Below, in pieces: positions 6,482-29,824 of a stretch of 32,000 nt of DNA. The translations under genes and the position numbers were made by a program. Position 1 is the first letter of the stretch. Each line of letters begins with the position of its first letter. The notes beneath the pieces are model-generated. The model was given only the letters and a program-made list of their open reading frames with translations, made no database searches and had not been told where the DNA came from. This DNA is from Candidatus Saccharimonadota bacterium (lineage in GTDB: Bacteria > Patescibacteriota > Saccharimonadia > Saccharimonadales > UBA4665), in assembly GCA_003516025.1 (NCBI GenBank), contig CP023991.1:871374-903373 (forward strand), read 5' to 3'.

Positions 6482-6699
6482 TTCTTAGGTGCCTCCTTCG
6501 TAGTGTATTTCCGTGAAGCACGCCAATAGAAAGGCTGCTCCAAAGATTACTCTAATTATACCGCTATTTAAGGTGTTCCACAAGTGAGGCCGTCCCAGGC
6601 GGCCGCCCACACAGTTATACACACGTTTAACTCCGCCAGACTTATAAAACCGTACACAAGCGATGTTCAACCGGCGAGCGGTTTGTTACACTATAGTCA

Positions 6700-9421: not shown

Positions 9422-9741
9422 AATCATTTCTCCTCGTTGCTTACATAGTAGGTGTTGTCCGAAGTAAAAGTAAGTACTAGCGAACTACCACCATAGTACG
9501 GGAAAAAGCTTATGTAAGGCTGTAAGATATTCCACTTACGCTAAAATATATCAGCAGCGCTCATATACGTACGTGGCTCTTATATATATGTTGGCTTACC
9601 CGCACCACAGAGGCAGTGCGCACGACATATATAGCCTTGGCTAGGCGTAAATTATAAAACTGGTGTTCATTTTGGTGGAGACATGAGACTGGTGTTTCCA
9701 TTTAGTGTTTTTGATTTTTGTTTTGAGTATTTTTTGTATGT

Positions 9742-9776
9742 TAAGTCATACTGCGAAGTATAAGCAGTATGACTTA
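9742..9776 (-). terminator. 13-bp hairpin immediately after the 228-aa gene stop
   Basis: TAAGTCATACTGC (9742-9754) pairs with GCAGTATGACTTA (9764-9776). The flanks are A/T-rich but there is no clean U-tract on the minus strand. Confidence 0.45.
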
Positions 9777-10553: not shown

Positions 10554-10561
10554 TTTTATAA

Positions 10562-10678
10562 TTCGGCACCGTGCTATTTTCCCAGGCTTCGAAAGCCAAG
10601 TATTGTAACCGCTAGGAGGCTTAACTGCTGTGTTCGGAATGGGAACAGGTGTTTCCCTCTTGCTATGGGCACCGAACA
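10562..10678 (-). rRNA. rrf: 5S rRNA
   Basis: The reverse complement reads ...GTTCGGTGCCCATAGCAAGAGGGAAACACCTGTTCCCATTCCGAACACAGCAGTTAAGCC...CTGGGAAAATAGCACGGTGCCGAA. This contains the conserved CCGAACACAG..GTTAAG core, and the ends pair as helix I. End coordinates are +/- a few nt. Confidence 0.9.
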
Positions 10679-10814: not shown

Positions 10815-11143
10815 TGCACTCCTCTGAATTAATCGTCAACAAGGACGACCAATTCAGAGAACGTAAAAAGTCAATGCCTCTATTAGTACGCTTCGGCTAC
10901 ACATGTTGCCATGCTTCCACCTTGCGCCTATCAACCTGATCGTCTTTCAGGGAGGTCATAGGGAAATCTAATCTTGAGACTAGTTTCGCGCTTAATATGC
11001 TTTCAGCGCTTATCTATTCCGCACGATAGCTACTCAGCAATGCCCTTGGTAGAACAACTGATACACCAGCGGTGCGTCCGCCCCGGTCCTCTCGTACTAG
11101 GGGTAGACTCTCTCAAATTTCCTGACGTCCACAGCGGATATAA

Positions 11144-11177
<34 letters not shown>

Positions 11178-11205
11178 ACGTACCTCTTTAACCGGCGAAC
11201 AGCCG

Positions 11206-11236
<31 letters not shown>

Positions 11237-11295
11237 AGATGAGCCGACATCGAGGTGCCAAACAGCGCCGTCTATGTGAACTATTGGGCGCTATA

Positions 11296-11326
<31 letters not shown>

Positions 11327-11685
11327 AAAGCGCTGTCGATACCACACTCTTGTACAAATGTACTGACAGCGGAAAACTTACTCCGACTTTCGTCCCTGCT
11401 CGGCTTGTAGGCCTCACAGTCAAGCTGGCTTATGCGTATGCACTATCGATACGATTTCCATCCGTACCTAGCCAACCTTTGAACGCCTCCGATACTCTTT
11501 AGGAGGCAACCGCCCCAGTTAAACTACCCACCAGACACGGTCCCCGAACCGGATAACGGTCCGAGTAAGAACAAGAAGTATACAAGGGTGGTATTTCACT
11601 GGTGACTCCACCTCAGCTAGCGCCGAGGCTTCAAAGTCTCCCACCTATGCTACACATGTATACCCCCAATTCAATGTCAAGCTGT

Positions 11686-11717
<32 letters not shown>

Positions 11718-12017
11718 GCGGACAGACGGCATCTTTACCGTCAATGCACTTTCACCGAGCTCTTCGTTGAGACAGTACCCATATCATTACGCCATTCGTG
11801 CAGGTCAGAACTTACCTGACAAGGAATTTCGCTACCTTAGGACGGTTATAGTTACCGCCGCCGTTCACCGGGGCTTCAGTTCAAAGCGTAAACCTCTCCC
11901 CTTAACCTTCCGGCACCGGGCAGGCGTCAGCCCGTATACATCCACTTTCGTGTTAGCACAGACCTATGTTTTTGGTAAACAGTTGCATGGGCTCCTTAGC
12001 TGCGGCCCCCTCATCGT

Positions 12018-12219
12018 AACCACCACAAGGGCGAATACAATGGTTGGACTATAGCTTTCTTTCAAAGCCAGCTAACCTATTGCTAGATTAGCCCGATATG
12101 TCTCAATTATTTCTCGATAAGTTTTTTACGTAAAAGTTATTACTCTTCAAAACCTATGTTTTCTTGAAAGAAAACTAAGCAAATCTCATGTATCCACTGA
12201 TGAACTATCATTGATGGAC
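12018..12219 (-). other. 23S insertion 1: ~200-nt element closed by a 12-bp stem, AT-rich interior, no ORF
   Basis: CCCCCTCATCGT (12006-12017) pairs with ACGATGAGGGGG (12220-12231). An inner 10-bp stem joins TTTCTTTCAA and TTGAAAGAAA. The element lies between the conserved GCCGTAACTTCGG and CAACTGTTTACCAAAAACA blocks, where E. coli has ~45 nt (helix 63 region, from memory). Confidence 0.75.
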
Positions 12220-13431
12220 ACGATGAGGGGGCAGGCCTTATTCCGAAGTTACGGCCGCTTGTTTGCCGAGTTCCTTAACGAAGAATCACTCGTACACCTT
12301 GGTCTACTCGACCTGAGCACCTGTGTCGGTTTGCGGTACGGATTGCATGAGCCACGCGTTAGATTGCTTTTCTAGTCAGTACTTTCATCAGAATTCCGCC
12401 AAAAAGGCAGTTTCATTCGTACCCATTTCTGATACTTAGACGGATATAACCATGAACCCGCTCTAACTAATATACCGCGCACATCTAACAAACTCATGCA
12501 AGTACGGGAATATTAACCCGTTGTCCATCGCCTACGCTACGCGCCTCGGCTTAGGACCGACTAACCCTGGGACGATTATCGTGGCCCAGGAAACCTTGCT
12601 CTTTCGGTGGGCAGGATTCTCACCTGCCTTATGGTTACTCATTCCAGCATTCTCACTTGATAACGCTCCACCAGACCTCACAGTCCGACTTCAATGCAAT
12701 ATCAACGCTCCTCTACCACGCAGAACAATAAATTGTTCCACATCCATATCTTCGGTGCTATGCTTGAGCCCCGTTACATTTTCCGCGCAAGATCTCTTGA
12801 CTAGTGAGCTGTTACGCACTCTTTAAATGAATGGCTGCTTCTAAGCCAACATCCTAGTTGTTTAAGAAATCTCACCTCGTTTCCCACTTAGCATAGACTT
12901 AGGGACCTTAGATGATGGTCTGGGCTGTTTCCCTTTTGAGCGACGAGCTTAGCCCCGCCGTTCTAACTGCTGTAGTTCCGCATGTAGTATTCGTAGTTTA
13001 TCAAGGGTGGGTAATCTTGCGACCCCCAGTCCAAAACAGAGCTCTACCCCTACATGTTACCGTACAACGCTAGCCCTAAAGCTATTTCGAGGAGAACCAG
13101 CTATCTCCAGGTTCGATTGGCATTTCACCGCTAACCACAGGTCATCCGGGTGTGTTGCAACGCACTACGGTTCGGTCCTCCACGTCGTTTTACCGACGCT
13201 TCAACCTGCCCATGGTTAGGTCACCTGGTTTCGGGTCTATTCATAGTAACTAATTCGGCCTATTCAGCCTCGCTTTCACTGCGCCTCCGTCAAATGACTT
13301 AAGCATGCTACTACAAATAACTCGCTGGATCGTTCTACAAAAAGCACCCCGTCACAAGATAAATCTTGCTCCGAGTCCTTGTACGCACACAATTTCAGGT
13401 TCTATTTCACTCCCCTTCCGGGGTTCTTTTA

Positions 13432-13462
<31 letters not shown>

Positions 13463-13613
13463 ATCGTTAGATATATTTAGCCTTAGGAGGTGGACCTCCC
13501 AAATTCAGTCAGGGTTTCACGTGTCCCGACCTACTCAACAAACAAATGATAAAGTTTGCAACACTTGGCATACCAGGCTTTCACTGTCTATGGCGGAACT
13601 TTCCAGATCCTTC

Positions 13614-13828
13614 TGCTCGCATCGCAAATTTTTTACTTTATACAAACGGTGGTAGCGTTTGTCTGCCAATATTGAAACCCGAGTAAACTCGAGACTCAAT
13701 ACTGGTGATTTGTATGTTACAACCCCTTAATAATATTCGTCTACCAACTTATTTGCCGCGCCCCTATCCTTTCACTTAGACGAATCTAAGGTTCGGGATA
13801 AGTTTACAAACAAAAATCATTAAAGTTT
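13614..13828 (-). other. 23S insertion 2: ~215 nt where E. coli has ~35 nt (domain I), no ORF
   Basis: It lies between the conserved GTGGCGAGCGAAACCGG... and ...GGATCTGGAAAGTTCCGCC blocks. Internal stems include ATTCGTCTA/TAGACGAAT and ACAAACG/CGTTTGT. Confidence 0.7.
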
Positions 13829-14243
13829 GGGCTCTACCGGTTTCGCTCGCCACTACTTCCGGCATCGTTGTTTACTTTCTTTTCCTCGGGGTACTAAGAT
13901 GTTTCAGTTCCCCCGGTTACCGCTCTCCAACCCTATATATTCAGGCCGGCGCCATATGACATTACTCATATGAGGTTTCCCCATTCGGAAATCTCCGGTT
14001 CATAGCTTAGTTAGCAGCTCCCCGGAGCTTATCGCAGCTCCTTACGTCCTTCATCGGTATCTAACGTCAAGGCATCCTTTGTGTGCGCTTGAGTAACTTT
14101 TTACGTAACATATATGTTCCGAAGAACACATATGCTTTGTGCAATTGACTAGTTATTGGTGATTATCATATGACCCGAAAAAAATCATAGATAGTATATC
14201 CCCAATAGCCGTATGTCTATTGTCTTTCTTATCTCTCATTGTC

Positions 14244-14259
14244 GAATTGTTAAATTGCA
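14244..14259 (-). promoter_or_regulatory. boxA-like element in the 23S leader
   Basis: The minus strand reads TGCAATTTAACAATTC, against E. coli rrn boxA TGCTCTTTAACAATTT. It sits between the predicted 23S promoter and the processing stem. Confidence 0.5.
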
Positions 14260-14361
14260 AAACTCAAAACATCGCACACGAATGTTTTAATGTTTGAGTT
14301 TACATTGGAAGCCTTCTGGACTATACCTTTGCCTCGTATCTAAACTCAAACCGACCAAACT

Positions 14362-14390
14362 ATTGTAGCAATTCTTACAGGGGCGGTCAA
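14362..14390 (-). promoter_or_regulatory. Predicted sigma-70-type promoter for the 23S-5S unit
   Basis: The minus strand reads TTGACC-N17-TACAAT (-35 at 14390-14385, -10 at 14367-14362), ~255 nt upstream of the mature 23S 5' end. Confidence 0.6.
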
Positions 14391-14602
14391 TACGCTGTTG
14401 CAGCTTTATTTGCTACATTTTATCCCTTCAAACAAGAGGTTACTACCAAGTTGCTAATAACATTGTCTTTCTCAGAGGGCTGAAGCTGAGTTAGAAACTT
14501 TCGCCTGAGCCATAAGTACTGATACCTATCATAGTCCTTTTTACAGAGACGGTCAAGCATATAATGATGTTAAACCGTCTACAGTTTGACTCCTCCAAAA
14601 GC

Positions 14603-15016
14603 TCACTTTTTCCAGACAAAGTATGGCTTATCCAAGTACAATGCTACCCTGGCTGGCTTTACGTCTGTTTTTATCAGGTGCGTATGCTGGTGGGCAGCTA
14701 CTGAGCGGGTAACATTATCGACTGAGCGCATGTAGACGTTATACTCATGCTCATACTGAGCAATAAACTGCATAATGTCAGCCAACTCTTCTTTTGAAAG
14801 CTCCCTGAGGCCGCTGACGTGACGCTTTGGCACCACCATTAAGTGATCCACCACATCCCGATACTCCCATATATCGTATGGGTACTTGTTAAACAGCACC
14901 ACTACGTGAGGAGTTTCGGCGATTATCCGGCGTTCTGCTTCCAGGTTACAAAATGGACAATCACGATCTTTCGGCTCTGACAAAAATTGCTTGATTGACG
15001 AACGATATCTAAACAT
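14603..15016 (-). CDS. HIT (histidine triad) family nucleotide hydrolase/transferase, 137 aa
   Basis: It has the histidine-triad motif HQHTHLI near the C-terminus and an N-terminal CPFC motif typical of HIT proteins. TATAAT lies 6 nt before the ATG. The gene looks more AT-rich than neighbouring core genes. Confidence 0.75.
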   Translation of the reverse strand: MFRYRSSIKQFLSEPKDRDCPFCNLEAERRIIAETPHVVVLFNKYPYDIWEYRDVVDHLMVVPKRHVSGLRELSKEELADIMQFIAQYEHEYNVYMRSVDNVTRSVAAHQHTHLIKTDVKPARVALYLDKPYFVWKK

Positions 15017-15035
15017 TCACCCATTATAAATGAAT

Positions 15036-15069
15036 TAAACAAAAACACATCCTGTTACGGATGTGTTTT
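15036..15069 (-). terminator. Rho-independent terminator directly after tRNA-Ala
   Basis: On the minus strand AAAACACATCC-GTAACA-GGATGTGTTTT is followed by TGTTT. It starts ~12 nt after the tRNA-Ala CCA end. Confidence 0.7.
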
Positions 15070-15080
15070 AGATTCGACTT

Positions 15081-15557: not shown

Positions 15558-17124
<1,567 letters not shown>

Positions 17125-17286
17125 AAAAAGTAGAATTTGTCTTAACTTCAGTCGAAACTGACTTAATTTTTGATTTACCGTCTCTTGCGAAACAAGCAAA
17201 CCGAAATTACATTTAAAACAATTCTATACATCCTTGCGGATATATATAGAACTGACGTTGATTTGCACTATTCAATTTTTAATGAA

Positions 17287-17807: not shown

Positions 17808-18476
17808 GTGCTTTATATTCATTCCGAAAACCATAATCAACAGAGCGGCATCGCACCTGAAACTATAGATTTGCAGCATGGCCTAGCGGTTGTGCAGAGG
17901 ATTCTTGAACTCACTATTGCTAATGGCGAAAACTTTACCGAAAGAGTTGATCAATATAGCTATGAGCGTCATCTCGATAATGCCCGTGCAACCTTTTTAG
18001 AACGTCGTCCCGATACAGAGACCCAGATGGAGCAGCTGGTGCCAAACACGACAATCCTAGGGCGCTACCTGAAGTTACAGACTTCGCCGGTTGAAAGCAC
18101 GGCAATAGCCCTTGGAGAAATGGGCCTGCTTCCAGCTACAGACTCTTCTCCATTAGCAAAGAAACTCGGCAATGGTGCCATTCAGCTTGGGGAAGTTAGT
18201 TTTGACGCTCTTGAAACTAATCAGCAAGTTGAAGAAACCTCGGCAGTTACACACTTCAATCTTCATTCTAACGGCTTAATCACAGTAAGCGGCGAGGTTA
18301 CCACTGCCGTAGATATCGATATTCCAGAACTCGCCCATTGGAACAGCCTTGGCATGAATGAAATGGTGGATCTGCGCCCATCGGACACGGTAACTTTTGA
18401 TTCTGAACCAGTTAGCCCTTATCAGGCAGAACAGCTGGCAAATTATGTTGCCAGCCGCACGCACCAAGAATATTAA
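17808..18476 (+). CDS. Hypothetical acidic protein, 222 aa (GTG start)
   Basis: The track ORF 17526..18476 would read through an AT-rich promoter. GTG 17808 has an SD 6 nt upstream and a promoter ~28 nt upstream. The stop overlaps the gyrA stop (shared TTAA). I recognise no motif. Confidence 0.6.
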   Translation: MLYIHSENHNQQSGIAPETIDLQHGLAVVQRILELTIANGENFTERVDQYSYERHLDNARATFLERRPDTETQMEQLVPNTTILGRYLKLQTSPVESTAIALGEMGLLPATDSSPLAKKLGNGAIQLGEVSFDALETNQQVEETSAVTHFNLHSNGLITVSGEVTTAVDIDIPELAHWNSLGMNEMVDLRPSDTVTFDSEPVSPYQAEQLANYVASRTHQEY

Positions 18477-21094
18477 TCTTGGGCGATCGGTTCCCCGCCC
18501 GGTTCAAGCACTACCTCGTCCTCGTCTTCAGGCTCTTCGGCCTTATCGACCAGTGCTAATGACACAACCTCATCGCCGTCGCGGAGGCGCATAATGCGCA
18601 CACCTTGGGTTGAACGGCCCAGAGCTGGAATATCTTTAATGCCCAAGCGAATGGTCTGGCCCTGCTGGGAAATGATGATCACTTCCTGACCGTCGTCGCT
18701 ACTGGATTCAACCAGTGTCTTTACGCCTACCAGGTCGCCGGTCTTCGTATTAACCACGGCGCTGCGGATACCGACACCACCACGGGTGTGCGGTGTAAAC
18801 TGGGCAACTTTGGTGCGCTTGCCGTAGCCGTACTTGGAAATTACGAAAATGCTGGAGTTAGCCTCAACAATGTCCATGCCGATAACCTTATCATCCTTAC
18901 GGAGGCGAATACCACGGACGCCGCGTGAAACACGGCCCATTGGCCGGGCGTCTTTCTCATGGAAGCGGATGGCCTGGCCTTCGGCGGTTGAAATAACTAC
19001 TTCGTTATCACCGTTGGTTGGGCGGATCCACTTTAATTCGTCGCCCTCATCGAGGTTGATGGCAATCAAACCGCTGGTCCGAACATTCTTGTACTGCTCA
19101 AACGGCGTCTTTTTTACGACACCCTTCACTGTACACATAATCAGGTTTTGGCAATCGACACCCTTAGAGACATTAATTACCGAGCTGACGGTTTCTTCCG
19201 GCTGCAGCTGCAGTAAGTTAACGATAGCTACTCCCTTGGCATTCAGGCCAACCGCTGGAACTTCATAGGTTTTAAGACGGAATACACGGCCCTTGTTCGT
19301 AAAGAACAGGAGGAAATCATGGGTTGAAGCGTTCACGACATGTTCGATGACGTCTTCTTCACGGGTAGCCATACCACGGCGGCCCTTGCCGCCACGTCCC
19401 TGGCGCTTATATTCAGCGATCTGACTCCGTTTAATGTAATTTGCTGATGTAAGAGTTACAACAACTTGTTCTTCGGCAATTAGATCTTCATCGTTCATGC
19501 GGTCCAGTTCGCTGTCGATAATGCGGGTACGGCGCTCATCGCCGTACTGCTTCTTCAGCTCTTTCATCTCATCTTTGATGATACCCAGGATGCGTTTTTC
19601 ATCAGCCAGGATAGCTTCCAGTTCCTGGATAATCTTCATCAGCTCGGCCAGGCGGTCTTCGATCTTCTGGCGTTCCAGGCCGGTAAGCGTGCGCAGCTGC
19701 ATCGCCAGGATGGCGTTAGTCTGCAAAATACTCAAGCCAAAGCGTTCAATCAGGTTGCGGCGGGCGGCATCAGTTGATTCACTGCCCCGGATAACGGCGA
19801 TCACTTCATCGATGTGGTCAAGCGCGATCTTTAAGCCCTCTAAGATGTGGGCCTCGTCTTTGGCCTTGCGCAGTTCGTACTCGGTACGGCGGCGGACAAC
19901 AATGCGGCGATGCTTAATGTGCTCATTAATAATGTCCTGCAGGCCCAGTACGCGTGGCTGGATACCGTCGATCAGGGCCATCATGTTAAAGTGGAACGAT
20001 GTCTGTAACGGCGTCAGCTTATACAGCTGATTGAGTAATTTCTTAGGGAAAGCGTCTTTTTTGAGATCGATAACAATGCGCACATTCCCACGGGCTGATT
20101 CGTCACGGATATCAGAAATGCCGGTAACTTTTTTATCGCGCACCAGGTCGGCAATTTTGACTACCAGGCTTTCTTTATTCAAGGCATAAGGAATTTCCGT
20201 AATAATGATCTGATGACGGCCCCGGTTTGATTTGGCGCCTTCGACGATTTCAGCGATACCCCGGGTGACTACGCCACCACGGCCGGTCGCGTAGGCGGTG
20301 CGTAAGCTGTCCTTGCCGTAAACGATACCGCCGGTTGGGAAGTCCGGACCTTTAACGTACTCTAAAAGGTCGTCCAGCGTGGCGTCCGGGTGGTCAATCT
20401 GGTGTATGGTCGCGTCGACCAGCTCGGTTAAGTTGTGCGGCGGAATATTGGTCGCCATACCAACAGCAATACCAAGTTGTCCGTTGAGGAGTAAGCTTGG
20501 AATTTTAGCCGGCAATACTGATGGTTCCTGAGTGGTTCCATCGTAGTTGTCACGGAAGTCAACAGTTTCCTTGTCGATATCTGCCAACAGCTCGTCGGCC
20601 AGGCGCTGCATCTTAGCTTCAGTGTAACGCATAGCGGCGGGTGGATCGCCATCCATACTACCGAAGTTACCCTGTCCGTTAATAAGCATATAGCGCATAC
20701 TCCACGGCTGAGCCATACGGACCATCGAGTCATAAATGGCGGCGTCACCGTGCGGGTGGTACTTACCCATCACTTCACCGACGACGTTAGCTGACTTACG
20801 GTGGCGAGAAGTGCTGCGCAGGCCGTTTTGGTTCATAGAGTATAAAATGCGGCGATGCACTGGTTTCATACCATCTCTGACGTCAGGAAGAGCACGTTCG
20901 ACAATAACCGACATTGAGTAGCGTAAATAGCTGTCTTCCATGACGTCTTCGACCGTACGGCCTTCAACCTGGCGGGAGTGAGTGATATCAGTAATGATTT
21001 CAACCGCGCTCGAGGAGGGCTGGTTCTCTAAGCGGGGCGTCTCGATGTTTTCATCGGGATTCGGGGTTATTGGTGTATCGAGATTATCATCCAT
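18473..21094 (-). CDS. gyrA: DNA gyrase subunit A
   Basis: It has the QRDR-type [17 protein letters not shown] motif, the active-site context [11 protein letters not shown]-terminal beta-pinwheel repeats and an acidic tail. SD AAGGA overlaps the gyrB stop. Confidence 0.97.
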
Positions 21095-21105
21095 AATTGC
21101 TATCC

Positions 21106-23094
<1,989 letters not shown>

Positions 23095-23379: not shown

Positions 23380-26300
23380 TTAGGATTGTGGGGCTGATGC
23401 CGCGTTGGGATCGGTCCGAGACTTAAGGTTACCCTCTTTGTCGATATAAATCGTGTCCTCTGGCGTTGAATCTTTGACGTTAGCCCGCGGCTGTGGCAGG
23501 ACGATGCCATCCTCCATGATAAGATTCTGGTCTATGACAAGCTCTTCGGACACCGTCGGAGCCGGTACGACCGGTATGTTTTCAGTCACCTGCGGAGTCA
23601 CTGCTAATGGCATGGGCGCTGCCGAGGCGGCTGCCGGAACTGGCGATGGAGATTGTGCGACGTGGCCTATAGGCGGGTGGACCGATGTCGCGGGCACGGT
23701 TACGGTTACCGGTGGTGTGGGCCGGTGGATTGGTTCAGGCGTGGCCGGATGCCACACCGGCTGCTGATAAGCGTGCGGTGACTGAGATTGCAGCGCCGTT
23801 TGCGGCGCGGTTGCCGGGCGGGCGGACGGAGCTGTCGGCATCTGCTGCCGTTTAGCAAGCCAGTCGTCCAGGAATGAACCACCCGCCGCAGGCGCCCCGC
23901 CTGCCGGGCGCTGAGCGGCGGCAGGCTGACCGAACTGTCCTGCCGGGCGGCCAAAGCCACCGGCAGCACCAGGTGCCACCGGTGAAGTTGCCGTGCCGTT
24001 ACCAAAAGCTGGAGTCGCTGGCCGGGATTCTTCTTTCGTAGCCAGGCGCGCGAATACCTCTTTTTCAACGGCGGCCCGCGGCTTGCCGTACTTAGCGGCC
24101 GAAAGCTGCTTCAAGGCATTGAATAACTGGGAGTTAGGGTTGCCGAGCGGCGGTAGGGTTGCCATAGAGAACGGATTGGTCGGCACTCCGCCCACAAGCG
24201 TACGGACAATGGCATTATGGTTTGGTATGCGCAGCAGGTCATCGGAGTCGAATGTTGGCTGGAAATACTTGGTAATAGCCTCGACGTCGTTCTGGCCGAT
24301 ACGGAAGGACACTATGGTACCCATGTTACCGAACACGGCGTCACGGATTTCTTCGGTCAGCTGGGTAGTAAACTGGTTAGCCACAATCAGATTCAGGTGA
24401 TACTTACGAGCTTCGGACATGATGGTCGCGAACGAATCGGTGGAAAAGTTCTGGAACTCATCGACGTACAAGGCAAAATCCTTACGCTCGCTCTCGGGGA
24501 TGCTGGCACGGCTCATAGCAGCCGCCTGGAACTTCATAACGAAGATCATGCCCAGTAGTTTGCTGTTAAGATCCCCTACCCGGCCCTTGGAAAGGTTTAC
24601 CAGCAGAATCTTCTTATTGTCCATCACATCGCGCAGGTCAAACGAGCTTTTGGTCTGGCCGATAATATTACGCATCATCTCATTGCTCAGGAAAGCGCCG
24701 AACTTTGATACGAACCAACTGACTACCTCACCGAAGTCGTTACTGCGCTGGGACTGCGGCATTTCCTTCGTCCAGAACTCTATAACATTCTGGTCGGTCA
24801 CATACTGCAGTTTCTGCTTAACGTACTGCGGATCGCGGAACAGCTTAGGGATATCTATGAATGTTCCACCCGCCGGATCAGCCATGACCGTAAGCGCAGC
24901 CATGCGGAATAAATGCTCATAACGCGGCCCCATGATGCCTTGATGCTGCGGATCGTACAGCTTATAGAGCATGTTGAGGGTTTCCTGAATCAGGAAGTCT
25001 TTCTGATCGGGATTATTAAACTCGAACAGGTTGAGGCCCATTGGATATTCCAGGTCGGCAGGACTGAAATAAATGACGTCCTCGGTGCGCTCTTTTGGTA
25101 CCATAGAGAGGATTTTTTCGGCCGTATCACCGTGCGGGTCAATAAAGGCGAAGCCATCGCCGTTCAGCATATCCTGCAACGCCAAGTTTTCGAGAAATGT
25201 TGATTTACCGGTACCGGTCTGACCGACGGCATACATATGCCGTTGCCGGTCGCCGAGAGCTAGACGCACCGGCTTTTTGACATTACGGAAGACGTTATAA
25301 CCCAGCAGCAGCCCTTCGTCCGGCATGTTGCGCGGACCGTCCACCTGCTTGGACATTTGGCGGGTCAGCTGTGAAGTCGGCGCGTTCTGGCCATCAGGAA
25401 AGTGGAACAACGTAGCCAGCTCAACGGCATTCAAAATATTCTTATTCTTCTTTTGCGGGAAGAAACGCATGATGTAGCCGGTGACGAAACTTTCCATGTC
25501 TTTGGCCGGCGTGTACTTGAAGCCATTTTTGCCGGGCGCGTCATACAGGGAGAATGTGGCGACAACGTTATTAAGGATCGCCTGGGCGCGCTGTGACACA
25601 TTGGAAGAAGCCACGACCCGTATCATCACCTCATAACCGGGATGCCTGGTCTTATCGTCAATAGAATCGAGCACCTGCTGTTCCAGGGCTGACAATTCCT
25701 TGGGCTTCTCTTCGCCCTTCCCACTATTATCGTCAGGAGGCTTAACAAAAGCAGTCATGAACTGCTTGAAGCCGTTACTGACCGCTTCAGCACCCTTGCT
25801 TCCCTCTTTACCCTTACGCTTTTTACTGGCAAGACCAGTGGCAGTTTTGCGCCAGCCCGGGTCGGCCGGACGCATAAGTATCTGAATACCGGCGCCGTCT
25901 TCCTTTTCAAGCGTCGACAAAGCATTTAACAACGAAACCATGGCGTCACGCTTCAGGTCCTGATACGTCGCGATGGGATAGGCGAAAGAGCTCTTTAAAT
26001 TAAGCTCGCCGCCGACCGTGCTGATAACCTTGCCGACCGGACTAAAAATATTGTGTTCAGCTACTTCTTCGAGCCGGGCCGCCGGATAGGCGCTGGTGAC
26101 CGCCTGCTTAACAACATCGACTAAAGCCACCGGAACCGCGGCATAGTAATATACAAAACCGTGAGTGCCGATAATCTCAAAGGCAAAATGGCGCTGGCCG
26201 TAGAACTTAGCCTTAAAACCCTTCTGCAGCGTGCTGGCAATAATGTTGTAAATAATTTGTGCTTTGCTGATTGTTTCATCTGTTAAATCGCGTTGGTCGC

Positions 26301-26481
26301 GGCCACCGCCCTGCAAGTCCTCACTTGGAGGCGGCAGGTTAATAAGCAGCGGTACCATCTTCAGGCCGCGTTCATAATTCTTCTGTTCACGCATGCTGCG
26401 GCGGGAACGCAAGAAGACTACCGGCGCTGCCACGCTGCCGATAACGATAATTATAATAAGTATAGTGAATAAGGCGGTCAT
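23380..26481 (-). CDS. Membrane-anchored P-loop NTPase of the TraD/VirD4 (type IV coupling protein) / HerA / FtsK superfamily, 1033 aa, with a ~250-aa Pro/Ala/Gln-rich C-terminal tail
   Basis: It begins with an N-terminal TM helix (FTILIIIIVIGSVAAPVVFL). The core carries Walker A VGQTGTGKSTF, IDPHGD, Walker B FALYVDEFQNF and ANQFTTQL. The tail is low complexity (PAGQFGQPAAAQRPAGGAPAAGG...PTPPVTVTVPATS...). The exact family is unresolved without an HMM search. Confidence 0.7.
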   Translation of the reverse strand: MTALFTILIIIIVIGSVAAPVVFLRSRRSMREQKNYERGLKMVPLLINLPPPSEDLQGGGRDQRDLTDETISKAQIIYNIIASTLQKGFKAKFYGQRHFAFEIIGTHGFVYYYAAVPVALVDVVKQAVTSAYPAARLEEVAEHNIFSPVGKVISTVGGELNLKSSFAYPIATYQDLKRDAMVSLLNALSTLEKEDGAGIQILMRPADPGWRKTATGLASKKRKGKEGSKGAEAVSNGFKQFMTAFVKPPDDNSGKGEEKPKELSALEQQVLDSIDDKTRHPGYEVMIRVVASSNVSQRAQAILNNVVATFSLYDAPGKNGFKYTPAKDMESFVTGYIMRFFPQKKNKNILNAVELATLFHFPDGQNAPTSQLTRQMSKQVDGPRNMPDEGLLLGYNVFRNVKKPVRLALGDRQRHMYAVGQTGTGKSTFLENLALQDMLNGDGFAFIDPHGDTAEKILSMVPKERTEDVIYFSPADLEYPMGLNLFEFNNPDQKDFLIQETLNMLYKLYDPQHQGIMGPRYEHLFRMAALTVMADPAGGTFIDIPKLFRDPQYVKQKLQYVTDQNVIEFWTKEMPQSQRSNDFGEVVSWFVSKFGAFLSNEMMRNIIGQTKSSFDLRDVMDNKKILLVNLSKGRVGDLNSKLLGMIFVMKFQAAAMSRASIPESERKDFALYVDEFQNFSTDSFATIMSEARKYHLNLIVANQFTTQLTEEIRDAVFGNMGTIVSFRIGQNDVEAITKYFQPTFDSDDLLRIPNHNAIVRTLVGGVPTNPFSMATLPPLGNPNSQLFNALKQLSAAKYGKPRAAVEKEVFARLATKEESRPATPAFGNGTATSPVAPGAAGGFGRPAGQFGQPAAAQRPAGGAPAAGGSFLDDWLAKRQQMPTAPSARPATAPQTALQSQSPHAYQQPVWHPATPEPIHRPTPPVTVTVPATSVHPPIGHVAQSPSPVPAAASAAPMPLAVTPQVTENIPVVPAPTVSEELVIDQNLIMEDGIVLPQPRANVKDSTPEDTIYIDKEGNLKSRTDPNAASAPQS

Positions 26482-26487
26482 AGTCGT

Positions 26488-26880
26488 TTACTCGTCCACC
26501 GACCCGATAATTTTGTTGTAGCGCTTTTTCATATAATCAGCCTTAAGGGCATGGAGCGCCTTGGTCTGTTCGTGCGGGTCGTTCCGGGTCTGCTCCACTA
26601 TATGCTTGGCTTTCATAACCCATTCTTTTTCGATCAGGTCACCGTCATCGGCGGCGGCCGGTGCCGGAGGTACCGGCGCCTGTTTCACTACGCCGGGTTG
26701 GGGGCCAGCCGCTGGTTGCAGCGGTAACGTAACCGACAACACGGACGGAGAACCACCAGGTATCACTGGAGGCGCGATGGCTGGCGCCGGCGCGGTTTCA
26801 GGGGATGACACCGGTAATTCACCTAACTCAGGAGCCACCGGGCCATGTACGGTATTGTTATGATTTTGATCCATTTCCAT
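26488..26880 (-). CDS. Hypothetical protein, 130 aa: Pro/Ala-rich N-half, charged helical C-half
   Basis: Its stop lies 6 nt before the ATPase start, which suggests translational coupling. The C-half reads DLIEKEWVMKAKHIVEQTRNDPHEQTKALHALKADYMKKRYN. Confidence 0.6.
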   Translation of the reverse strand: MEMDQNHNNTVHGPVAPELGELPVSSPETAPAPAIAPPVIPGGSPSVLSVTLPLQPAAGPQPGVVKQAPVPPAPAAADDGDLIEKEWVMKAKHIVEQTRNDPHEQTKALHALKADYMKKRYNKIIGSVDE

Positions 26881-26933
26881 CTACGCTTTTCTATCTATAG
26901 ATTATACAACTATAATCAAATTATCCGCAGCGT

Positions 26934-27317
26934 TTACATTTTTCCGCCATCATTCCCCCCGAGGTACAGACGCGTAACGTAAAAGTACCCTGCCAGGAAT
27001 AATATTATGAGCGTGATGACATCGCGCGGCGTCAGCTGGCCGATAGACTGTAACGCCAATAACATAACCGGTAGCAGCGACAGCGAAACCACCAGGCCGT
27101 TGTATGGCACCGGCCTGAGCCTCCGGTCTAGTTTCAGCACCCGGGCCGTAAGCCGGACCCCGCAGTAAGAGATAACCAATAGAAGGATGAAGGCCGCTAC
27201 GAGCACTATTGGTGCCGAGTTGCGCGGATTCATAGCCGAAAAAAACAGCGTGGCTGCTACTACGGCCGTGACGAGCACGGCTAATTCCGGATACCGTTTC
27301 ATGTAGCGTTTTATCAT
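26934..27317 (-). CDS. Small integral membrane protein, 127 aa, ~4 predicted TM helices
   Basis: Four hydrophobic segments are visible (LAVLVTAVVAATLFF, IVLVAAFILLLVISY, LVVSLSLLPVMLLAL, VITLIILFLAGYFYV). It is the first gene of the three-gene minus-strand module. Confidence 0.65.
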   Translation of the reverse strand: MIKRYMKRYPELAVLVTAVVAATLFFSAMNPRNSAPIVLVAAFILLLVISYCGVRLTARVLKLDRRLRPVPYNGLVVSLSLLPVMLLALQSIGQLTPRDVITLIILFLAGYFYVTRLYLGGNDGGKM

Positions 27318-27358
27318 ACTGTACTAAGTATAAGCTTTTATAGGTCTATAACGGTACT

Positions 27359-27388
27359 AAAAAGCCGCGAATTGCTTCGCGGCTTTTT
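27359..27388 (-). terminator. Intrinsic terminator/attenuator 40 nt upstream of the membrane-module start codon
   Basis: GCCGCGAA-TTGC-TTCGCGGC is flanked by A5 and T5 runs, so it is bidirectional in form. On the minus strand it is followed by TTTTT and then by the 127-aa gene. Confidence 0.7.
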
Positions 27389-27725
27389 ACGGTTAATTAT
27401 TTGTAAGACAACGCCCCTGTATCAGGGCAAAAATTCAAAGGGCGACCAAGGCGATAAATCCGCTCATACAAATATAAACTATTGTAGCGCTTATCGCCTA
27501 TGGTCTGACTGACCGCTCCGTGTGCCGGTAAGGCATTTGGAGCGTTAGCGGCATCTTGGCTATGTACTATAAGGAGCCTAGGGATTCCTTATGAACCGGA
27601 AAAACGTGTAAGCAGTATTCTTCTCTGGTTTACATAGTCTAAATTTGAAAAGATTTCATTTTTAGCGATGCCGGTGATGTGTTCTGTAAGTTGTTAAAGA
27701 ATTCTTTTTTGTTTTTGTAACTTAC
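27389..27725 (-). ncRNA. Candidate ~340-nt structured leader RNA or independent ncRNA (promoter to terminator)
   Basis: It is bounded by the predicted promoter (27732-27760) and the terminator (27359-27388). Internal stems are CGCTCC..TGCC-loop-GGCA..GGAGCG (27514-27546), GGCGATAA/TTATCGCC (27460-27498), ATAAGGA/TCCTTAT (27569-27592) and CCCTG/CAGGG (27414-27426). There is no credible ORF, and I recognise no known riboswitch, SRP, tmRNA or 6S signature. Confidence 0.4.
27691..27700 (-). promoter_or_regulatory. boxA-like core in the minus-strand leader
   Basis: The minus strand reads TCTTTAACAA, an exact match to the 3' ten nt of E. coli boxA TGCTCTTTAACAA. It lies ~25-35 nt downstream of the predicted TSS. 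Confidence 0.4.
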
Positions 27726-27731
27726 TCTTTC

Positions 27732-27760
27732 ATCCTACTACGAATTAGGCGAAATGTCAA
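27732..27760 (-). promoter_or_regulatory. Predicted promoter driving the leader and membrane module
   Basis: The minus strand reads TTGACA-N17-TAGGAT (-35 at 27760-27755, -10 at 27737-27732). Confidence 0.55.
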
Positions 27761-27941: not shown

Positions 27942-28001
27942 TTAATTTTCTAGTTATACACAGGATTCTGGCAAATTGAGACAAAATGCTTAAGTTTCCT
28001 G

Positions 28002-28030
28002 TTGACACTATAAACAGTAATTTATAAGAT
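28002..28030 (+). promoter_or_regulatory. Predicted promoter of the sRNA candidate / comM leader
   Basis: It reads TTGACA-N17-TAAGAT, the same -10 hexamer and spacing as the predicted 16S promoter. Confidence 0.55.
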
Positions 28031-28036
28031 AGGCGT

Positions 28037-28195
28037 AGCACTGAATAAAAAAAGTGCTCAAAAATAAAAAACGAAAACTACAAAAGGGACAACAGCTACT
28101 CGCAGGTTGTTGTCCCACCAACAAACAGTTTTCAAACAAAATAGACAAAACCAAAACTACAAGACCCGCTCCGAGACTGGCGGGTCTTTTTCTTT
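28037..28195 (+). ncRNA. Candidate ~160-nt A/C-rich small RNA (or terminator-containing 5' leader of comM)
   Basis: The predicted TSS is ~28037. It contains the hairpin AGCAC..GTGCT and a 9-bp hairpin GGGACAACA-N13-TGTTGTCCC. A single-stranded CA-rich tract follows (CCAACAAACAG..CAAACAAAATAGACAAAACCAAAACTACAAG). It ends in the terminator AGACCCGC-N10-GCGGGTCT + TTTTTCTTT (28162-28195). Confidence 0.45.
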
Positions 28196-28270
28196 GCCTC
28201 AGTAACCGAAAAATTACTTATTTATGAACACAATCGCCTCATGCTTGCATGGCTGGCTCAGCCGCCTACA

Positions 28271-29824
28271 ATGAGCCTCATGAGCAGCCGGGTACAAAGT
28301 TTGATTAGTAATGGCAGCGGCGGCATAGTCGTCGATATTGAATGTAGTTTGTCCAACAACTTACCCAACATCGTCATAGTCGGCTATGGCAACCGCGCCA
28401 TTGAAGAAGCCAAAGAACGTGTGCGTGGCGCTTTTGCCAGTAGCGGCCTTCGTTTGCCACGTAAACGTATCACCATTAATCTCGCCCCCGCCGACGTACC
28501 GAAAGACAGCAGCAGCTTTGATGTCGGCGTAGCGGCCGCCATCATACTGGCGGGCGGACCCTCAGCACGTGGACTCGCTTCTCATGAAGCGGTTATGGGA
28601 GAACTGGGTCTTGATGGCTCAGTCAGGCCGGTCAGGGGTATCATCGGAAAGATACAGGCAGGCCGCGCCCACGGTATCACTACTTTTTATATCCCGGCGG
28701 CTAACGTCAGCCAGGCTCAGCTCGTACCGGGCGTAGCTCTCGTACCCCTTAACAGCCTCGTCGAACTGGCCGCCCATTTAAGCGGCGGCGGCAATCTGCC
28801 TTCTGTGATTACCGACCCCTCGGCGGTTACCACTCGAAAGCGGACAGACTTAGACGGTTGCCTCAATGAAATTACCGGACAAGCCCTGGCGAAGCGGGCA
28901 CTAGAAATAGCCGCCGCTGGCGGCCATAACATATTACTCAACGGCCCGCCGGGAACCGGTAAGAGCATGCTGGCCCGCGCCCTCCCCTCCCTGTTACCAC
29001 CGTTGACGTCCGAAGAAATGCTTGAAGTTACGCAGTTACACAGTCTGGCCGGGCAGTCGTATCAGCAAGTTGTAACCGCTCCGCCATTCCGCGCGCCGCA
29101 TCACAGCGCCAGCACTGCTGCCATAATCGGGGGCGGTACGAGTCTACGACCTGGCGAAATCAGTTTAGCGCATCGGGGCGTGCTGTTTTTCGATGAATTT
29201 CCCGAGTTCAACAGGCCAACGCTCGAAGCACTGCGTCAACCCTTGGAGGATCAGGCCATTTCCTTGTCGCGGGCCCGGGACAGCGTCCGATTTCCGGCCA
29301 GTTTTATATTACTCGCGACAGCTAACCCCTGCCCCTGTGGCTACTACGGTACAGGAAAGCCGTGCGACTGCCCGCCGCACGCTATTCGGCGTTACAGAGC
29401 TAAACTTTCCGGACCGATTATCGACCGCATAGACCTCTTCTGTGACGTCCATGAAGTCGATCACGGCTCACTACTCGAAAACGCTTATGATAAAGCCTCA
29501 GACGGGCCCGTACGGGCCCGTGTTGTCGCCGCCAGGGATCTACAGGCCCAGCGCTACGGCAGTGCGGGCGCTCAAACGCTACTCAATGCCACGGTAAGCA
29601 ACCGTGATATCCGGATGTACGCCCAGGTAGACGAGGCCGCCAAGCAGTTGCTTAATAGCGCTGCCGGCAGTTTGAATATTTCAGCGCGGGCCTACATGCG
29701 CACCGTCAAAGTTGCCCGCACCATAGCCGATCTGGCCGGTAGTAGGGCCATTGAACCCCGCCATGTTAGCGAAGCGCTGCAATACCGGTCACGTTCCTCC
29801 CCGGCCACGGGGCAGCTGACTTGA
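28271..29824 (+). CDS. comM: ComM/YifB-family Mg-chelatase-like AAA+ ATPase (competence-associated helicase family)
   Basis: It has the N-terminal Lon-like domain (ITINLAPADVPKDSSSFDVGVAAAII), Walker A GPPGTGKSM, Walker B VLFFDEFPEF, the CPCGYYGTGKPCDCPP cluster and a C-terminal SARAYMRTVKVARTIADL. The start is set at MSLMSSR by alignment to my recollection of E. coli YifB (MSLSIVHTRA); 28241 and 28280 are alternatives, and no SD is evident. Confidence 0.85.
   Translation: MSLMSSRVQSLISNGSGGIVVDIECSLSNNLPNIVIVGYGNRAIEEAKERVRGAFASSGLRLPRKRITINLAPADVPKDSSSFDVGVAAAIILAGGPSARGLASHEAVMGELGLDGSVRPVRGIIGKIQAGRAHGITTFYIPAANVSQAQLVPGVALVPLNSLVELAAHLSGGGNLPSVITDPSAVTTRKRTDLDGCLNEITGQALAKRALEIAAAGGHNILLNGPPGTGKSMLARALPSLLPPLTSEEMLEVTQLHSLAGQSYQQVVTAPPFRAPHHSASTAAIIGGGTSLRPGEISLAHRGVLFFDEFPEFNRPTLEALRQPLEDQAISLSRARDSVRFPASFILLATANPCPCGYYGTGKPCDCPPHAIRRYRAKLSGPIIDRIDLFCDVHEVDHGSLLENAYDKASDGPVRARVVAARDLQAQRYGSAGAQTLLNATVSNRDIRMYAQVDEAAKQLLNSAAGSLNISARAYMRTVKVARTIADLAGSRAIEPRHVSEALQYRSRSSPATGQLT

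Follow-up and report, generated by a model that had tools for sequence, protein, structure and literature searches.

Orphan RNA motifs of the CMfinder type, among them raiA and other phylum-restricted motifs, are intergenic elements bounded by a promoter and a terminator, with several covarying helices and invariant unpaired nucleotides, and their function is unassigned. Attenuator leaders, such as riboswitches, the L20 leader upstream of infC in Firmicutes and the PyrR-dependent leaders, place a promoter, a structured RNA and a terminator within tens of nucleotides (nt) of an open reading frame (ORF) and have a variable expression platform. Here we describe RNA-A, an element with features of both, in a 32,000-nt stretch of a Saccharibacteria (TM7, Patescibacteria) chromosome (CP023991.1, assembly GCA_003516025.1, positions 871,374-903,373 of the forward strand; hereafter the window, in whose own positions all coordinates are given). 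RNA-A sits in the 923-nt gap between a 127-aa ORF, the first gene of an operon that ends in a VirD4-like ATPase, and the divergent gene comM. An earlier note on the window had read this region either as an attenuator-like leader or as a non-coding RNA. In kind, RNA-A is an orphan conserved bacterial RNA motif. It differs from other such motifs in that it is not in Rfam 15, occupies a single fixed context, apparently occurs in one copy and is paired with a second RNA that shares a sequence motif with it. The parts of the RNA-A transcription unit in the window, from 5' to 3', are as follows.

27732-27760, minus strand: promoter by sequence match, with -35 box TTGACA (27760-27755), 17-nt spacer and -10 box TAGGAT (27737-27732)
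27686-27725, minus strand: 5' hairpin H1, in which GUAAGUU (27725-27719) pairs with AACUUAC (27692-27686)
27717-27706, minus strand: A/C-rich motif CAAAAACAAAAA in the H1 loop, which in the window's subclade only also holds the boxA-like GAAUUCUUUAAC
27549-27673, minus strand: variable middle domain P0 in the minimum free energy (MFE) fold, closed by CGGCAUC (27673-27667) and GAUGCCG (27555-27549)
27514-27544, minus strand: core hairpin P1, with base CGCUC(C)/(G)GAGCG and, in the window, inner stem UGCC-loop-GGCA
27518-27507, minus strand: invariant 12-mer GAGCGGUCAGUC, overlapping J
27506-27513, minus strand: linker J, single-stranded and invariant (GUCAGUCA)
27444-27505, minus strand: core hairpin P2, with outer stem GACC/GGUC, middle stem AGGCGAUAA/UUAUCGCCU, a conserved internal loop, inner stem CGCU/AGCG and an AU-rich tip
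27412-27429, minus strand: small hairpin in the 3' tail (GCCCUGAUACAGGGGC), from pattern scan and fold
27359-27388, minus strand: intrinsic terminator, A5, GCCGCGAA-GCAA-UUCGCGGC, U5, a 14-bp hairpin in the MFE fold
27327-27332, minus strand: candidate -10 box TATACT by sequence, 9 nt before the ATG at 27317, with no Shine-Dalgarno sequence present

Relatives were fetched around comM homologues (65 loci, about 55 of them from Saccharibacteria, with ComM identities of 49-62%), and the window's subclade was assembled from its eight closest relatives, fetched via the ATPase, giving nine sequences with the window. In an nhmmer search with the intergenic region, a conserved block of about 115 nt (27556-27436 in the window) appears in almost all comM-fetched Saccharibacteria loci, always on the strand opposite comM, and about 150 Saccharibacteria loci each carry a single copy of the core P1-J-P2 (27544-27444). 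The invariant 12-mer GAGCGGTCAGTC is found in 48 of the 49 comM-fetched Saccharibacteria loci with enough flanking sequence, exact in nearly all of them, and is absent from non-Saccharibacteria comM loci. A pattern scan picked out 120 stretches in metagenome contigs, which divide into 112 true members and 8 chance matches in unrelated high-GC DNA. Scored with a covariance model (R1), the window reaches 87 bits (E = 2e-21); the model finds exactly one match per locus in 1.2 Mb, that of locus L029 being split by an insertion, and none in viral contigs or in non-Saccharibacteria comM loci. A phage or mobile origin was considered and rejected: viral contigs gave eleven pattern matches, every one by chance and none with a covariance-model match.

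Within an alignment of 101 sequences, 96.8% of the cells at paired positions hold standard pairs, and double-change cells number 360; column shuffles give 109±12, and sliding the pairing partners gives no more than 77. Pairing falls to 93.6% when the opposite strand is read, a difference that arises from 89 G.U cells, and the strand that these cells indicate agrees with the orientation of promoter and terminator. The base of P1 (helix 1) is invariant except for one compensatory CG, and its inner stem (helix 2) is variable, with double changes at all five pairs; helices 3-5, in P2, are 95-99.8% paired and carry many double changes, those of the outer and middle stems being numerous and the inner stem CGCU/AGCG invariant, and a C-G substitution in locus L014 supports the A-U pair beside the P2 loop. 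Between the two hairpins the linker J, GGUCAGUCA, 9 nt long, is unpaired and invariant. The hexamer GAGCGG serves as the 3' strand of both P1 and the inner P2 stem.

No Rfam 15 family matches the region at the gathering threshold; at E<=10 with lax filters the only matches are weak (at most 25.7 bits, against thresholds of at least 41) and align on terminator hairpins, and a scan of 14 other RNA-A members gave nothing relevant at E<=1. Our literature search found no description of RNA-A and no Saccharibacteria non-coding RNAs beyond the universal ones. The region holds just two ORFs of at least 20 aa, both starting with TTG: one of 24 aa on the minus strand and one of 46 aa on the plus strand. 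A coding explanation for RNA-A is ruled out by the invariant 12-mers and the paired covariation; a possible six-codon leader peptide in the middle domain (AUG-AAA-UCU-UUU-CAA-AUU-UAG) is missing from close relatives. Taken together, these sequence comparisons establish RNA-A as a genuine, conserved structured RNA and as a new family absent from Rfam 15.

Outside the core, RNA-A combines a constant 5' end with lineage-specific expansions. Promoter-like sites in the region number five, against 3.1±1.9 in shuffles, and the window's promoter match is by itself not above chance; it gains significance because the promoter is conserved upstream of the core across the family, where a TTGACA box (at most one mismatch) followed after 16-18 nt by TAnnnT is found by sequence match in 151 of 160 members. 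Transcription would start near 27725 and yield an RNA of about 370 nt in the window genome, and of about 150-220 nt in most relatives. A 381-nt transcript has an MFE of -113.4 kcal/mol (z = -7.3 against shuffles; z = -5.9 for the opposite strand). Hairpin H1 (GUAAGU...ACUUAC), with CAAAAACAAAAA in its loop, begins 5-8 nt past the -10 box in nearly all members, and its stem is replaced by different complementary stems in several lineages. From promoter to core the distance has a median of 77 nt and reaches about 209 nt in the window because of the inserted middle domain (27673-27549). Most family members have a short hairpin or nothing in place of P0, which in the window encloses two hairpins, that at 27569-27592 among them. 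In the alignment of the P0 subclade (8 sequences), compensatory changes occur in the closing stem and in both inner hairpins, and the 27569-27592 stem is thus real, but lineage-specific. Insertions across lineages lie at three sites, namely the H1 loop, P0 and the junction of J with P2. In L029, L189, L190 and L192 the last of these sites holds an extra 35-50-nt hairpin, which lowers the model score to 31-47 bits and leaves the conserved elements intact.

Much of what the earlier note had described is borne out by these comparisons. The TTGACA-N17-TAGGAT promoter at 27760-27732 is present, in an arrangement kept throughout most of the family, no sizeable ORF is found, no known riboswitch class is matched in the window or in other members, and aligning the relatives' intergenic regions, the check it had proposed, gives the recurrence and the excess of double changes reported above. 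Its alternative of a non-coding RNA, a structured unit running from promoter to terminator, is fully supported. Its list of four stems needs qualification: 27514-27546 and 27460-27498 correspond to P1 and inner P2, with strong covariation, and 27569-27592 holds within its lineage, but 27414-27426, visible in the window as the small hairpin at 27412-27429, has no counterpart in close relatives and is not conserved.

The genes around RNA-A, together with the other annotated units to its 3' side, are arranged in the window as follows.

10561-10676, minus strand: 5S rRNA (Rfam scan)
10862-14103, minus strand: 23S rRNA (Rfam scan)
15559-17128, minus strand: 16S rRNA (Rfam scan)
18473-21094, minus strand: gyrA
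21106-23088, minus strand: gyrB
23380-26481, minus strand: gene for the 1033-aa ATPase
26488-26880, minus strand: 130-aa ORF
26934-27317, minus strand: 127-aa ORF, first of the ATPase operon, with its ATG at 27317
28241-29824, plus strand: comM, with infC and rplT also on the plus strand

The 1033-aa ATPase resembles type IV coupling proteins (T4CPs; TrwB, DotL, TraD, VirD4) and carries DUF8128 in precomputed annotation. The 127-aa protein looks, by eye from its hydrophobic stretches, like a membrane protein of about four helices, and the 130-aa protein, rich in Pro and Ala, has a conserved basic C-terminus. In every true match with enough flanking sequence, homologues of the 127-aa, 130-aa and 1033-aa proteins are encoded behind RNA-A, with gyrB and gyrA beyond them in most cases. 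About 12 metagenome loci lack comM and have infC adjoining instead; RNA-A is retained there, and its linkage is therefore to the ATPase operon and not to comM. The operon (23380-27317, minus strand) is syntenic with gyrB-gyrA throughout Saccharibacteria, and in many lineages about 2.5 kb of extra DNA separates the ATPase gene from gyrB. According to a preprint on Patescibacterial type IV secretion systems, VirD4-like coupling proteins of these bacteria are mostly encoded far from virB4, and the copy of Southlakia is reported to be non-essential and possibly exapted (bioRxiv 10.1101/2025.01.22.634366). In the rRNA operon, the 23S match spans 3242 nt against a model of 2925 positions (10862-14103, minus strand), pointing to an insertion of about 300 nt, and the spacer of about 1 kb between 23S and tRNA-Ala (14104-15080) contains a 137-aa ORF (14603-15016) with a weak HIT-domain match.

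How RNA-A relates to this operon depends on what happens downstream of the core. In the window, terminator stem arms AAAAAGCCGCGAA and UUCGCGGCUUUUU around GCAA can be read directly in the sequence (27388-27359); the pattern scanner did not list this terminator, presumably because its A5 and U5 flanks extend the stem into the U-tract. The same hairpin would function on the plus strand too. Between the end of the U-tract at 27359 and the ATG at 27317 lie 41 nt. Among 148 non-redundant members, 85 have a separate hairpin with a U-run (median -14 kcal/mol, about 54 nt past P2) and 47 have a U-run directly behind P2, and 132 have a terminator-like feature in total. Terminator sequences are unrelated even among close relatives, and only their position is maintained. 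Across 106 non-redundant loci a Shine-Dalgarno-like sequence precedes the first ORF in only 17%. Family-wide, TAnnnT hexamers peak at 6 nt before the ATG (20 loci, against about 5 at every other offset). A distance of about 6 nt between -10 box and ATG is the canonical spacing of leaderless mRNAs. Within the window's subclade, TATAGT, TATAAT or TATACT stands 6-9 nt before the ATG in five of the nine sequences (the window, L186, L187, L188 and L192). Since a -10 box stands at leaderless distance from the ATG in many loci, the sequences suggest that transcription of the operon starts from a promoter of its own, located downstream of 27359.

A terminator that is controlled by the RNA itself would be expected to compete with an alternative pairing, and three tests for one were negative. 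Complementarity between the 5' strand of P2 and the downstream tail is 3.87, against 3.90 in shuffled sequences; the comparison of each locus's own P2 strand with permuted partners gives 40 of 135, against 37.9±3.7; and the duplex energy of the terminator's 5' strand with the upstream RNA lies below z = -1.64 in 5% of loci. In one subclade (L009, L013, L017, L019, L027 and L046) the terminator stem (AUACCGU.../...ACGGUAU) copies, by eye, the middle stem of P2. This could be a local duplication or a lineage-specific alternative pairing, and it is not significant family-wide.

Processive antitermination signals, such as boxA with NusB/E in rrn (rRNA) and lambda operons, the HK022 put RNA and EAR, offer another comparison. 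Like them, RNA-A has two hairpins near a promoter, upstream of a terminator and a long operon, and UUCUUUAACAA in the window resembles boxA; unlike them, its boxA-like string is confined to the subclade, the rrn box is different, Rfam gives no EAR match, and a terminator that is always overridden would be purposeless. The boxA-like TCTTTAACAA (27700-27691) is identical in five aligned sequences, the window and four close relatives, and is visible in L192 too; it is absent from L190, L191 and L193 and from the wider family, where the loop is just CAAAAACAAAAA, and the 16S leader of the window genome carries a different boxA-like box, GTTCTTTAAAG. A boxA antitermination site was rejected on these grounds, UUCUUUAACAA occurring only in the window's close relatives. 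A T-box leader was rejected as well: there is no T-box match, and the downstream genes encode a protein with four transmembrane segments (4-TM), a Pro-rich protein and the VirD4-like ATPase. The earlier note's description of the 3' end stands, both the intrinsic terminator and the spacing of about 40 nt to the first start codon. Its boxA-like core exists as a string at 27700-27691, but not as a feature of the family. The T-box, attenuation-riboswitch and antitermination mechanisms it had put forward find no support in the three pairing tests, in the model searches or in the distribution of boxA, and an operon promoter downstream of 27359, which it had named as a finding that would speak against its reading, is what the leaderless-spaced -10 boxes of many loci suggest.

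RNA-A is not alone in its gap. Directly upstream of comM lies a second promoter-to-terminator unit, RNA-B (28002-28195, plus strand), also without an Rfam match. Its parts in the window, with a site that precedes them, are listed here.

27952-27964, plus strand: DnaA-box-like site AGTTATACACAGG, conserved in nearly all loci some 40 nt before the -35 box of RNA-B
28002-30, plus strand: RNA-B promoter, TTGACA-N17-TAAGAT
28037-28058, plus strand: first hairpin, AGCAC...GUGCU, followed by UCAAAAA(C/U)AAAAAC
28086-28116, plus strand: highly conserved hairpin, its loop reading ACUCGCA here and UCUCGCA in most members
28161-28193, plus strand: terminator, preceded by A/C-rich sequence

Virtually all Saccharibacteria loci keep RNA-B, whose helices covary and include G.U pairs on the plus strand, and loci without comM still carry it in front of infC; its role could be that of a leader to the comM/infC-rpmI-rplT operon or of a small RNA. 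Near their 5' ends the two RNAs share the motif UCAAAAACAAAAAC (27706-27717, minus strand, in RNA-A; 28058-28072, plus strand, in RNA-B). With at most one mismatch, CAAAAACAAAAA has 127 matches in RNA-A 5' parts and 128 in RNA-B, against 70, most of them imperfect, in the rest of the DNA (1.7 Mb); the idea that such A/C-rich motifs are a general feature of 5' untranslated regions was rejected, since the motif is specific to RNA-A and RNA-B in the 1.7 Mb and rare in the window. As DNA, the RNA-A and RNA-B copies of the motif make a distant inverted repeat that encloses the divergent promoters. Between these promoters AGTTATRCACAGG contains the DnaA-box consensus TTATNCACA: perfect boxes number 127 in 127 spacers and 19 in the remaining 1.4 Mb (1.6 against 0.013 per kb), and the spacer is enriched about 5-fold in imperfect boxes. 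Two further divergent intergenic regions of the window, at 6615 and 17464, contain the 9-mer TTATNCACA as well. A third unit with an A/C-rich leader lies at 9690-9770 on the minus strand, where TTGACG-N17-TATACT is overlapped by a perfect 12-bp hairpin (AAGUCAUACUGC...GCAGUAUGACUU), followed by CAUACAAAAAAUACUCAAAACAAAAAUCAAAAACAC and then an ATG.

We tentatively favor a model in which RNA-A is a stand-alone, probably protein-binding, small RNA, even though we hold this model to be somewhat short of probable. In this model RNA-A would be transcribed from its own near-consensus sigma-70-type promoter and end constitutively at its own terminator, and the operon for the 4-TM protein, the Pro-rich protein and the VirD4-like ATPase would start from its own, often leaderless, promoter right after that terminator. 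The model draws on strong terminators that lack a switch, on leaderless-spaced -10 boxes and infrequent Shine-Dalgarno sequences, on a modular architecture and on the motif common to RNA-A and RNA-B. RNA-A would act by binding a protein rather than a metabolite, as suggested by its two near-identical helices (CGCU(C)/GAGCGG) and its invariant unpaired linker, and its fixed core with variable expansions resembles the architecture of housekeeping ribonucleoprotein (RNP) RNAs. 6S RNA (ssrS), which is stable, strongly transcribed and protein-binding, shows conserved synteny and partial co-transcription with the downstream ygfA, and the ssrS-ygfA pair offers an analogy for a stand-alone RNA that stays linked to an operon. 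A further likeness is to CrcZ (AAnAAnAA, bound by Hfq/Crc) and CsrB/RsmZ: RNA-A has an unpaired A-rich motif, CAAAAACAAAAA fits AAnAAnAA, and the second RNA of the locus carries the motif together with further A/C-rich stretches. It differs from these RNAs in having one or two motif copies per RNA, and its P1-J-P2 core has no counterpart there. A target in trans for the linker was sought in the fetched loci and rejected: all 149 loci with TGACTGACC carry it only as the antisense of RNA-A, and the few other occurrences are at chance. Mimicry of rRNA was rejected too, the longest word shared with 23S rRNA being 10 nt (GATAAGCGCT), about as expected by chance, with no conserved motif in 16S or 23S rRNA.

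Several observations weigh against a stand-alone RNA and speak for a cis-acting 5' leader, which we regard as possible but less probable. Here the RNA-A promoter would be the operon promoter, the terminator or P2 with its U-run would be an attenuator, and a trans factor would decide between termination and read-through, for example a protein, possibly an operon product, that binds the P1-J-P2 core or the A/C-rich loop; in terminator-less lineages control would fall on translation. RNA-A is found in no context other than the ATPase operon, in all true matches and even where comM is lost, as a cis leader would be. Where a rule stricter than that applied to the 148 members found a terminator (53 of the 106 loci), the ORF starts a median of 20 nt past the U-run, too close for a complete -35/-10 promoter to fit outside the terminator, and a -10-like hexamer 5-9 nt before the ATG occurs in 36% of loci, only about a third. 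Sixteen of the 148 members have no clear terminator by strict rules, and in L126, L143 and L130 the ORF follows 12-38 nt after P2 with no terminator, so that the RNA must be part of the mRNA there. The region past the core thus varies like an expression platform (terminator, P2 with U-run, or none), and RNA-B has the same layout before comM or infC. Set against a leader are the absence of an alternative pairing to switch the terminator in all three tests, the strength of the terminators, and the leaderless-spaced -10 boxes and rare Shine-Dalgarno sequences that point to a separate promoter. RNA-A differs from described attenuator leaders on the same two counts, having no detectable exclusive antiterminator and being followed by an ORF that often has a -10 box of its own at leaderless distance.

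The evidence argues against a classical riboswitch, as it does against a T-box or a boxA site, and we consider a new metabolite or second-messenger riboswitch, with P1-J-P2 as aptamer and the terminator or start-codon region as platform for a DNA-translocase-like operon, to be very unlikely. Several features would suit such a switch: the core is conserved and covaries, it has unpaired nucleotides that do not change and an internal loop that is maintained, it stands immediately 5' of an operon, and the platform downstream of it varies. Since Saccharibacteria depend on imported nucleotides (PMC11665869), a nucleotide-sensing one would fit their physiology. Yet the pairing tests gave no antiterminator complementarity, neither an enclosing stem nor a multi-helix junction that could form a pocket was detected, large insertions between J and P2 are tolerated, and no Rfam riboswitch is similar; moreover, RNA-A has one gene context and apparently one copy, and most riboswitch classes control several genes. 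Still less probable is a strongly diverged housekeeping RNA (6S RNA, signal recognition particle (SRP) RNA, RNase P RNA or tmRNA) missed by the Rfam models, despite the class-wide conservation, the consensus-strength promoter, the fixed core with variable expansions and the precedent of ssrS-ygfA for synteny and co-transcription. No relevant Rfam match appears even at E<=10 with lax filters, and tmRNA was rejected because ARAGORN finds only tRNA-Ala and tRNA-Ile in the window. 6S RNA was rejected because the 5' end of RNA-A folds on itself as the local hairpin H1 and its core is two independent hairpins, with no 5'/3' closing stem, no long rod with a central bubble and no Rfam 6S match. The AU-rich, variable tip of P2 is not the conserved GNRA tetraloop and symmetric loop of SRP domain IV, and no sequences like P4/CR-I of RNase P were seen in the window sequence or the core alignment. 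Least plausible of all is that the hairpins act at the DNA level, in a replication origin or a DnaA-controlled divergent promoter region, and that the RNA itself is functionless. The perfectly conserved DnaA-box-like site between RNA-A and RNA-B, with its enrichment over the surrounding DNA, the divergence of genes from this gap, the adjacent gyrB and gyrA and the inverted repeat formed by the shared 12-14-nt motif would all fit, but the G.U pairs are specific to one strand, and promoter and terminator bracket the element in nearly all members. A replication origin was rejected in its own right: the GC skew has no sign switch at about 27.9 kb, there is about one perfect box per locus, and neither dnaA nor dnaN lies in the window.

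Beyond the role of RNA-A by itself, RNA-A and RNA-B, which have UCAAAAACAAAAAC in common and lie on either side of the DnaA-box-like site, may together form a Saccharibacteria-specific regulatory module, acting through a common factor or with RNA-A as a new riboswitch or RNP-type sensor, that couples DnaA or cell-cycle state to the VirD4-like operon and to the comM/infC operon. We consider this module unlikely; if it exists, it would link DnaA and the cell cycle to the expression of a DNA translocase in host-dependent, nucleotide-auxotrophic bacteria.

Hardly any regulatory RNAs have been described in this phylum of host-dependent bacteria with reduced genomes. Saccharibacteria have genomes of about 1 Mb and very few known regulators, and RNA-A, whose invariant core holds a fixed position in about 150 independent genomes and which precedes an orphan T4CP-like ATPase, is one of few handles on their gene regulation. 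The alignment provides a ready seed for a new RNA family. Some Saccharibacteria are cultivable and naturally transformable (PMC11665869), so that RNA-A can be deleted, tagged and pulled down directly in these host-dependent bacteria.

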